This document shows, in pieces, positions 11,124-12,888 of a DNA stretch of 60,290 nt. This DNA is from Candidatus Amesbacteria bacterium GW2011_GWC1_47_15 (GTDB taxonomy: Bacteria; Patescibacteriota; Microgenomatia; CAZETR01; Amesbacteraceae): positions 1 through 60,290 of the forward strand of contig LCNU01000015.1 of NCBI GenBank assembly GCA_001001375.1, in the 5' to 3' direction. Each line of letters opens with the position of its first letter. The first letter of the stretch is position 1. The position numbers and the translations under genes are program-made. The notes below the pieces were generated by a model, which was not told where the DNA came from, made no database searches, and saw only the letters and a list, made by a program, of their open reading frames with translations.

Positions 11124-11936
11124 TTATTCCCATTTATATATTAACGGTTTAAAAACGCTTTCCAGTTGTTTGTATTTTTCTTTGGAGATGATCTCGAGCT
11201 TTATGTTTGGGTATTTTTGCCGGAATAGTCTGTCGCGCTCCCGGGAATAATCATTCATATAGTTTTTGACTTCTAAAAATAAATTACTATCGGGTAGATA
11301 GAAGTCTGGCCTATATGTATGCTTTCCCAAGTCAAATATTTTGGGGGAATACTGCCAATTAATATTCATCAATGTTAGAACCCGGGCAATATTAGCTTCC
11401 CAGGTGCTGTAAAAACAGATGGAATCATCAATGTCCGGGCGAATACCTGATTTCCCCCTGGAAGCTTTTGGGGAGGTTGTGTTCCTTCCAATAATTTGCA
11501 TATGACAATAGTTACTACAATATTTTCTTTTCGTTGCCATATAAGGAGGTACGAAAAACACCTTCTTACAGTTAGCATTAAGACACTGGACCGGGAGCAG
11601 CGTTACAATTCTTCTGGGGGGCGGTGGACAGAATCTTTTTATAGTTGAAGATATTTTTTGTCGGGTTTCAAGACTATGTTTCCGACCCAAATTATTCACA
11701 TGAGCAGCACATCGGCGAGAACAATATTTTTGCTTTAAATAAGGTTTTATAGCGAATGTTTTGTCACAATCCCGGCTGCAGCAGACCCGATTTTGTAATG
11801 GTTTGATACGGAATGAGTATTTTCCCAAACGCCAATTTGTCTTGGCTATCGTTGACTGGAGGTGTTTATATTTACTATCTGAATAAAAATTTCCACTCAC
11901 TGACCCATTATTTTCCGTAATATTCCCGAAGGTCAA
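11124..11936 (-). CDS. free-standing nuclease: repeated Cys motifs + NUMOD3-like motif + C-terminal PD-(D/E)xK (TnsA-N/Vsr-like) domain
   Basis: 270-aa ORF. It has two C-x-C...YCSxxC motifs, GRKHSLETRQKIS (NUMOD3-like) and YRPDFYLPDSNLFLEVKNY (a PD...E-x-K nuclease core). It starts 12 nt after tRNA-Thr(UGU). Confidence 0.75.
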   Translation of the reverse strand: MTFGNITENNGSVSGNFYSDSKYKHLQSTIAKTNWRLGKYSFRIKPLQNRVCCSRDCDKTFAIKPYLKQKYCSRRCAAHVNNLGRKHSLETRQKISSTIKRFCPPPPRRIVTLLPVQCLNANCKKVFFVPPYMATKRKYCSNYCHMQIIGRNTTSPKASRGKSGIRPDIDDSICFYSTWEANIARVLTLMNINWQYSPKIFDLGKHTYRPDFYLPDSNLFLEVKNYMNDYSRERDRLFRQKYPNIKLEIISKEKYKQLESVFKPLIYKWE

Positions 11937-11947
11937 TCTGCAATTTG

Positions 11948-12019
11948 AGCCGGCGGGGAGTTTTGCAATCCCGACCTTGGCTTTACAAAAGCCCTGCTCT
12001 GCTTCTGAGCTACGCCGGC
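11948..12019 (-). tRNA. tRNA-Thr (anticodon UGU), atypical D and T loops
   Basis: Acceptor GCCGGCG/CGCCGGC, D stem GCTC/GAGC, anticodon stem GGGCT/AGCC(A) with loop TTTGTAA. The D loop AGAAGCA lacks GG. The T arm GGGAT-TGCAAAA-CTCCC lacks TPsiC and the G53-C61 pair. Confidence 0.6.
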
Positions 12020-12034
12020 GGAGTCAATTTTACC

Positions 12035-12253
12035 AAAAAAAACCGGCATAATGCCGGAGCGAACAGAATGTCCCGCCAATCAGGAGCGAAGGTTTTTCCC
12101 CAAGTAGTAGCAAAGTGGGCGAGCTCCCCCCAAAATATCACACTTTAGGGGATGTCCGCTCCGGTACTCGGACCGGAAGGGAGTTGTGCCCTAGCCCTAC
12201 TGGATTAATATAGTCGAGGAAAAATGACTTCGACTATCCTTCTTGGCAGGACA
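12035..12253 (-). ncRNA. structured RNA candidate of unknown class (~215 nt) with own -10 box and terminator
   Basis: - TATAAT on the minus strand at 12265-12260 lies 7 nt before the 5' end.
- An 11-bp closing helix pairs 12253-12243 with 12079-12069, with one G.U in the minus orientation only.
- Further helices: GAAGG/CCTTC, an 8-bp hairpin ATAGTCGA...TCGACTAT, CCAGTAG/CTAC-T-TGG, GGGC..CTCCC/GGGAG..GCCC and TCCGGT/ACCGGA.
- The RNA ends in CCGGCAT-T-ATGCCGG plus T8. Confidence 0.5.
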
Positions 12254-12291
12254 ATTATTATTATACCTGTATTTGCAAGAGGGAAAAAGTG

Positions 12292-12888
12292 TCAGGGGAG
12301 AAGAAAATTGATTATCAGGCGGGAAATGGGAGAGATGATCAGATAAGCAACTGAGTATCCTCCGAATATGGGCAAGATCAGCAGCAGGATGAGCATTAAT
12401 GAATTGGTTTTCAGGAGCGGATGACTGGTCGGCAAAAGCTTGGAACCGTCTAACGGCGGGACGGGAATGAGATTAAAAAGCGCAAGGTTTACATTCAGGG
12501 ATACCAGACCGTAAAAGACCACCAGCACCTGGGAGGGCATGGAAGTAAGCTTGGTGATTAATGAAAGAAGTACAGCCAGGACAATGTTGCTGGCAGGCCC
12601 GGCCAAGGCGATAAGGGCAGTATCGCGGCGGGGGTTTCGCAGGTTGTACGGGTCAAACGGCGTGGGCTTGCCCCAGCCGAAAAAACCGGTAAAGATGATG
12701 GCCAGGGTGCCGTATGGGTCAAGATGGGCAAGGGGATTAAGAGTCGTCCGGCCCAGAGTGCGGGGGGTGGGATCGCCCAGATAATCTGCCATGAATGCAT
12801 GGGCGGCCTCGTGGATGCCAATAGCCAGGATAATTCCGCCGAGAATAACGACGAAGGCGTAGGGATTGGTAAACAAAAGGTTTAGCAT
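12292..12888 (-). CDS. site-2 protease family (peptidase M50) membrane metalloprotease
   Basis: 198-aa polytopic ORF with the motifs HEAAHAFMA (HExxH) and NLIPVPPLDGSKLL. Confidence 0.85.
   Translation of the reverse strand: MLNLLFTNPYAFVVILGGIILAIGIHEAAHAFMADYLGDPTPRTLGRTTLNPLAHLDPYGTLAIIFTGFFGWGKPTPFDPYNLRNPRRDTALIALAGPASNIVLAVLLSLITKLTSMPSQVLVVFYGLVSLNVNLALFNLIPVPPLDGSKLLPTSHPLLKTNSLMLILLLILPIFGGYSVAYLIISPISRLIINFLLP

Follow-up and report, generated by a model that had tools for sequence, protein, structure and literature searches.

A probable 6S RNA with a branched terminal arm upstream of a tRNA-Thr cluster in a Candidatus Amesbacteria bacterium

The window analyzed here is the whole stretch of 60,290 nucleotides from contig LCNU01000015.1 of Candidatus Amesbacteria bacterium GW2011_GWC1_47_15 (GCA_001001375.1), whose assembly comprises 0.91 Mb in 52 contigs and is 88% complete. 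Between an M50 protease ORF (12292–12888; Pfam Peptidase_M50) and a tRNA-Thr(UGU) gene on the minus strand (11948–12019; found by the Rfam tRNA model with 48.9 bits and missed by ARAGORN) lies a gap without a credible ORF. The first-pass annotation had described the gap in the same way and placed there a stand-alone, highly structured RNA gene of unknown class, transcribed from the minus strand and equipped with a −10 box and a terminator. Except for the class, this description holds. The gap harbors a stand-alone, 184-nt structured RNA gene on the minus strand, the body of which begins at U1 (12253) and ends with the closing helix (12070). RNA positions are converted to window coordinates by subtracting them from 12254. 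The fold of the window RNA has a predicted energy of −90.1 kcal/mol (z = −5.6), and none of 200 shuffled sequences folds equally well. The minus orientation is borne out by the covariance model, which scores the sense strand with 169 bits and the antisense strand with 26 bits.

The gene has the length, promoter element, and terminator of an independent RNA gene, namely a 184-nt body, a TATAAT box that precedes U1 by 6 nt, and an intrinsic terminator (12057–12035). The −10 box (12260–12265, minus strand) is a perfect TATAAT, as noticed before, and its distance to the RNA start is fixed in 16/16 family homologues. A −35–like hexamer, TTGCAA (12273–12278, minus strand), is located 7 nt upstream of the −10 box. 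This spacing is noncanonical, the usual distance between −35 and −10 elements being 17 nt, and a promoter scan called no canonical promoter at the RNA gene. Nearly all family homologues nevertheless contain a TTGACA-like hexamer 6 to 7 nt before TATAAT (at the same place in L002–L016), and in other families of the class the same RNA is preceded by TTGAC(T/A)-17 nt-TATTCT, that is, with canonical spacing. The terminator consists of the stem CCGGCAU-U-AUGCCGG (12057–12043) followed by U8 (12035–12057 in total, minus strand); it had been proposed from inspection and was recovered independently by a terminator scan. In many relatives, the closing helix is immediately followed on its 3′ side by a U-run. 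The tRNA-Thr genes located past the RNA, in the window (12020–12034, minus strand) as well as in relatives, carry a conserved extended −10 box, TGnTAAAAT, 7 to 12 nt before the tRNA 5′ end and without an obvious −35 element.

A blastn search recovered homologues with 70 to 83% identity from 15 of 26 family genomes and none from outside the family. The 16 extracted family copies share the same ends and invariant sequence blocks. From their alignment a covariance model, R1, was built; a second model, R2, was built from 29 sequences, all of them from Microgenomatia. The E-values of both models are rough, with a shortened calibration. The window RNA is matched over its full length by R1 with 169.1 bits and by R2 with 150.4 bits. 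R1 matches 7/7 sampled family genomes. In a sample of 151 genomes from the class Microgenomatia, it yields full-length single matches in 35. R2 matches 84 of these 151, with one sense copy each, except for one tandem pair. Beyond Microgenomatia, R2 matches no more than a few genomes under strict filters. All genome sets are samples, and not being found in them does not equal absence. The tandem pair belongs to genome G040, where two 6S-like copies are located about 100 nt apart (G040:C2:151199-151353 and 151454-151601), an arrangement that recalls the two 6S RNAs of Bacillus.

The consensus fold of the family comprises 51 base pairs. In the alignment of the 16 family copies, 95.3% of cells are paired and 24 of the 51 pairs show double, compensatory changes; none of 500 shuffles is as good, and upon sliding the partners against each other only 44 to 56% of cells pair. 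In the wider alignment of 29 sequences, double changes occur in 43/51 pairs, with the reservation that alignments fitted to a covariance model lean toward the structure of that model.

The molecule is closed by helix P1, in which the 5′ strand (12243–12252, minus strand; RNA 2–11) pairs with the 3′ strand (12070–12079, minus strand; RNA 175–184) in 98% of cells, with compensatory changes between G-C and A-U. The closing helix UGUCCUGCCAA / UUGGCGGGAC(A) of the first-pass annotation is therefore real. It contains ten conserved pairs, of which three show compensatory changes, and its U·G pair, which had been used to infer the strand, is U·G in 16/16 sequences. P1 is followed by two short helices, P2 and P3, whose 5′ strands (AGG, RNA 14–16, and CGAAG, RNA 22–26) are located at 12228–12240 (minus strand). 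They pair with CCU (RNA 170–172) and CUUCG (RNA 163–167), respectively, located at 12082–12091 (minus strand). P2 shows A-U to G-C covariation in four sequences, and P3 occurs in the variants GAAG/CUUC, UGAG/CUCA, and UUUAGA/UCUAAA. Covariation hence favors AGG/CCU plus CGAAG/CUUCG over the helix GAAGG/CCUUC that had been drawn here in a wrong register. The last helix on the closing side of the central bubble is P4, formed by UUUUCCUCGA (12214–12223, minus strand; RNA 31–40), the predicted template of a product RNA, and UUGGGGAAAA (12094–12103, minus strand; RNA 151–160). P4 is paired in 99.4% of cells of the family alignment, covaries in the wider set (C-G/U-A and C-G/G-C), and lines up with the internal helix of the 6S consensus in Rfam.

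The central bubble is asymmetric. Its 5′ strand of 16 nt (12198–12213, minus strand; RNA 41–56) is unpaired in the consensus and aligns, in a homologue, to the 16-nt bubble strand of the Rfam 6S model RF00013, whereas its 3′ strand of 13 nt (12104–12116, minus strand; RNA 138–150) begins with ACUU. Beyond the bubble, the terminal arm starts with GGGC (12194–12197, minus strand; RNA 57–60) paired with GCCC (12117–12120, minus strand; RNA 134–137). This GGG/CCC helix is paired in 98% of cells, nearly invariant, and equivalent to the GGG/CCC helix of RF00013. The arm then branches into two hairpins. P5 (12155–12182, minus strand; RNA 72–99) has an 11-bp stem with compensatory changes in 8/11 pairs and a conserved hexaloop, CCNAGU, which reads CCGAGU in the window. 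Its counterpart in other families is their single terminal hairpin. P6 (12127–12151, minus strand; RNA 103–127) is a family-specific extra arm, by which the terminal arm becomes a three-way junction; it shows compensatory changes in 6/6 pairs and is gapped in 13/29 sequences of the wider alignment. Most other families of the class have a shorter RNA of about 150 to 160 nt that carries only the single terminal hairpin and forms a plain rod with a bubble. P6 is hence interpreted as a family-level insertion.

Across the class, the best-conserved sequence surrounds the bubble and consists of UUUUCCUC, GGG, CCCAC(Y)U, and GGGGAAAA. Within the family, G58, G59, and C135-A138-C139 are invariant. In the distant set, CCCAC is invariant. 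The motif CCCAC(Y)U, which does not vary in the family or the class, corresponds to ‘CCCACCUgg’ of the Rfam 6S consensus. The terminal arm contains conserved loop and junction sequences as well, namely CCNAGU, ACAAC, GACAU, and AGCUC.

About half of the helices drawn in the first-pass annotation differ from the evolutionarily conserved ones. The 6-bp apical hairpin is contained in the conserved P5 stem. The composite helix GGGC-ACAA-CTCCC/GGGAG-CTC-GCCC survives in its GGGC/GCCC part, but CUCCC is not paired with GGGAG and instead forms the base of the 11-bp hairpin. The helix CCAGUAG/CUAC-U-UGG, on the other hand, is paired in only 48% of cells and falls within the central bubble. Likewise, the 8-bp side hairpin is paired in only 70% of cells and competes with the helix UUUUCCUCGA / UUGGGGAAAA, which is paired in 99%. 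With these values, the earlier fold was rejected as the ground state. The side hairpin is the favored predicted fold in 5/16 family members and shows one compensatory change. Judged by these folding predictions, it is possibly an alternative conformer, and not the ground state.

A tRNA-Thr gene (UGU or GGU) is located just downstream of the RNA in 28 of 34 loci according to ARAGORN, and in 30 of 34 if the aberrant copies in L001 and L007 are included. This position, directly upstream of a tRNA-Thr cluster and on the same strand in about 30/34 loci, invites the explanation that the RNA is a leader or processing element of a tRNA-Thr-Tyr-Thr operon. It would be cotranscribed with the tRNAs and regulate their transcription through alternative folds, with the closing helix and the U-run serving as an attenuator. 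The two competing predicted folds, including the side hairpin favored in some family members, would suit such a role, and in the relative G011 the tRNA begins 7 nt past the RNA end, leaving no space for a promoter. In the window, however, the RNA ends in a strong terminator, and a separate extended −10 box, TGGTAAAAT, belonging to the tRNA-Thr(UGU) follows between this terminator and the tRNA. At several of the loci compared, no tRNA is found downstream of the RNA. Moreover, the homology to 6S RNA described below accounts for the structure without a leader function, and cotranscription with a tRNA, as may occur in some relatives, would be compatible with 6S function. A leader of the tRNA operon is thus a very improbable explanation of the RNA.

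The tRNA cluster has peculiarities of its own. The window tRNA-Thr(UGU) exhibits an aberrant T arm (GGGAUUGCAAAACUCCC) and an aberrant D loop. The same odd form occurs in one relative, G015 (L007), downstream of its 6S copy, and other relatives have a normal tRNA-Thr(UGU). Between tRNA-Thr(UGU) and tRNA-Tyr, the window contains an ORF of 270 aa (11124–11936, minus strand) with a weak Phage_endo_I match of 22.8 bits, below the Pfam cut-off. This match is consistent with a mobile nuclease that has inserted into the tRNA cluster.

As to the class of the RNA, the window copy itself is not recognized by Rfam. The direct Rfam scan recommended by the first-pass annotation gave no match to the RNA at the gathering score or at E ≤ 10, the only matches in the window at either threshold being tRNAs and terminator-like noise. 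RF00013 searched against window positions 11900–12400 likewise yielded no match even at E ≤ 10, nor did it match elsewhere in the genome; the window copy thus falls short of the RF00013 gathering score of 46.4 bits. The standard Rfam model misses this copy because the RNA is so diverged and contains an extra hairpin. The homologues, on the contrary, tie the RNA to the Rfam family 6S/SsrS in both directions, so that it no longer belongs to an unknown class.

In the first direction, RF00013 recognizes homologues of the window RNA. When the loci of 20 distant homologues were compared with all of Rfam, the only significant matches besides neighboring tRNAs were to RF00013. The homologue in G029 matches with 42.5 bits (E of 3e-5 against all Rfam over 60 kb, 1.8e-7 locally) over model positions 1–187, and the one in G134 with 36.7 bits over the full length of the model (1–187). 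Both matches have the same coordinates and strand as the matches of the covariance models built here. Among 20 further short loci from other families, RF00013 matches six, that is, G088 with 47.7, G049 with 43.0, G157 with 38.7, G073 with 38.2, G042 with 33.5, and G043 with 27.6 bits, again with the coordinates and strand of the homologues, and no other Rfam family matches these 20 loci at E ≤ 1. Herein, the copy in G088 is the one homologue above the 46.4-bit cut-off. Whole-genome RF00013 scans of 151 Microgenomatia genomes gave no match above the cut-off and three weak ones, two of which coincide exactly with R2 matches. When a homologue is aligned to the Rfam model, P4 coincides with the internal helix of 6S RNA and the large loop with its central bubble, and GGG / CCCACCUGG takes the same positions as in the consensus.

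In the other direction, R2 recognizes 6S RNAs that RF00013 detects elsewhere in the phylum. There, RF00013 finds 6S RNAs of about 155 nt above the cut-off in 7/151 genomes, with scores of up to 73 bits. R2 matches the one in G300 (RF00013 73.2 bits) with 50.4 bits and an E-value of 1.5e-11. Other RF00013-detected 6S RNAs of the Candidate Phyla Radiation (CPR) are matched with 38.2 (G189), 35.4 (G216), 30.7 (G215), and, in another case, 27.8 bits. These matches to 6S RNAs of other CPR classes are full length, with E-values from 1e-11 to 1e-6. R2 and RF00013 match each other's RNAs, and therefore, the homology runs both ways. No match of R2 to E. coli ssrS was obtained; hence, the 6S link rests on the broad Rfam model together with the CPR 6S RNAs.

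The architecture can be compared with that of known 6S RNAs, such as E. coli SsrS and B. subtilis 6S-1. In common with these, the window RNA is encoded by a stand-alone gene of about 150 to 190 nt present in one copy per genome and combines a closing stem, a large central bubble, and a terminal arm, with GGG / CCCACCU beside the bubble. The closing stem P1 to P4, the bubble of 16/13 nt, and the GGG/CCC arm are all supported by covariation. There are also differences. One is the fixed sequence UUUUCCUY / RGGGGAAAA of the helix adjoining the bubble, which sets this helix apart from RF00013. In addition, the terminal arm of canonical 6S RNA is a plain rod that is little conserved in sequence, whereas in the family of the window RNA the arm is not an unbranched rod but a three-way junction bearing the covarying hairpins P5 and P6 and the conserved CCNAGU hexaloop. 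The gene position differs as well, being upstream of a tRNA-Thr cluster here and beside the 5-formyltetrahydrofolate cyclo-ligase gene in the case of E. coli ssrS. The 6S RNAs of about 155 nt from other CPR classes (73 bits in G300, 59 bits in G189) are of the same length class as the short Microgenomatia versions. They lack P6 and pass the Rfam cut-off, in contrast to the Microgenomatia versions, for which 0/151 do so in whole-genome scans. A search of the literature for 6S RNA in CPR bacteria or Patescibacteria returned nothing specific.

The missing direct Rfam match of the window copy and the failure of R2 to find E. coli 6S RNA would also be expected of a new CPR-specific RNA class that resembles 6S in shape only. 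Such an RNA would act via its three-way junction and hexaloop, for instance as the scaffold of an unknown ribonucleoprotein, which agrees with loops and junctions that are conserved in sequence while the stems vary. Against this stand the RF00013 covariance-model links, which are two-way and full length, with some scores above the cut-off. Furthermore, the conserved core is located around the bubble, as in 6S RNA, and not in the apical arm, which is a single variable hairpin in most families. A separate class is decidedly unlikely on these grounds, and we consider the RNA at 12070–12253 to be, with high probability, the 6S RNA (ssrS gene) of this Candidatus Amesbacteria–type CPR bacterium.

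Other housekeeping and regulatory RNAs were considered as well. The first-pass annotation had seen no signatures of RNase P RNA, tmRNA, or SRP RNA, and rightly so. RNase P RNA was rejected, as the genome encodes its RNase P RNA on another contig. Retron, riboswitch, and T-box identities were dropped, since neither a reverse-transcriptase gene nor a regulated ORF lies downstream and Rfam gave no match. A divergent SRP RNA of the 4.5S type deserves closer comparison. It is similar to the window RNA in being a hairpin-shaped housekeeping RNA of similar size, and its role looked unfilled, as the models of bacterial SRP RNA (RF00169 and RF01854) matched nothing in the own genome, in 27 family genomes, or in 61 class genomes. 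The protein partners are missing too, however. The Ffh M domain (PF02978) was found in 0/27 genomes. Neither this domain nor an SRP54-type GTPase (Ffh or FtsY) was found in the own genome, in 27 family genomes, or in 101 phylum genomes, and the search for the GTPase in 41 relatives was negative as well. Matches to PF00448 cover the P-loop only, and the best ones turn out to be Mur ligases. A motif scan found no DTAGR motif in any open frame of the genome, and SecY was found as a positive control of the protein search. The window RNA lacks the domain IV motif, a GNRA loop, and a match to the SRP models, and its apical loop and hairpin are variable. Loss of SRP subunits in many CPR bacteria has already been reported (PMC8080830). 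With neither Ffh nor FtsY encoded in the genomes sampled, as far as detected, SRP RNA is excluded, and we assign it next to no likelihood. The genome contains two short N-runs (G000:C10:24267-24329 and C18:19615-19719), one inside prfB, which encodes release factor 2, near the expected site of programmed frameshifting, and the other in a large surface protein; no SRP gene is hidden by either run.

In E. coli and B. subtilis, the bubble of 6S RNA mimics an open promoter, and the housekeeping holoenzyme is sequestered until a product RNA, templated by the 6S RNA itself, brings about release by refolding. By analogy, we infer that the window RNA binds RNA polymerase and templates a product RNA. 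The bubble would serve as the open-promoter mimic and place the RNA in the active-site cleft of the RNA polymerase holoenzyme with the housekeeping sigma factor. The 5′ bubble strand together with the 5′ strand of P4 would be the template, with synthesis starting near U42 to U44 and proceeding toward the RNA 5′ end. The resulting short product RNA, predicted to begin roughly with AUAGUCGAGGAAAA, would displace the GGGGAAAA strand. The freed strand could then find a new partner in a second UUUUCC-like copy within the bubble, upon which the bubble would collapse and the polymerase be released. When the template strand is masked in the folding prediction, the bubble closes in roughly 10 of 16 family members by pairing of GGGGAAAA with the second UUUUCC-like copy on the 5′ bubble strand. 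As far as folding predictions go, this rearrangement appears to resemble the known release rearrangement of 6S RNA.

The expected sigma partner is present in the family: 23 of 26 family genomes encode a primary sigma factor of about 375 aa. A gene for it was not found in the own, 88%-complete assembly, in which the sole match to sigma-70 region 2 is an ECF-like sigma factor of 221 aa (G000:C10:19884-20084; L083 1345-2010). The gene of the 375-aa factor is probably located in the unassembled 12%.

The segment AUAGUCGA (RNA 17–24) has the same sequence with which the product RNA is predicted to begin, and it can pair with the template strand, forming the side hairpin of the earlier fold. This allows for the speculative, and on balance unlikely, model that the 6S RNA of this family is bistable and self-regulating. 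Here, AUAGUCGA would pair with the template, GGGGAAAA would shift to the second UUUUCC copy, and the bubble would close without the polymerase. P6 and the hexaloop could, in addition, recruit a CPR-specific partner that sets the switch.

Identification of the RNA as a probable 6S RNA fills an annotation gap, since Rfam reports none above its cut-off in 151 Microgenomatia genomes, and R2 locates a single copy in 56% or more of them. Bacteria with genomes smaller than 1 Mb that have lost SRP-dependent protein targeting would yet have retained a global brake on RNA polymerase. The branched terminal arm would, finally, represent a natural variant that may be used to ask where 6S RNA has to resemble promoter DNA.
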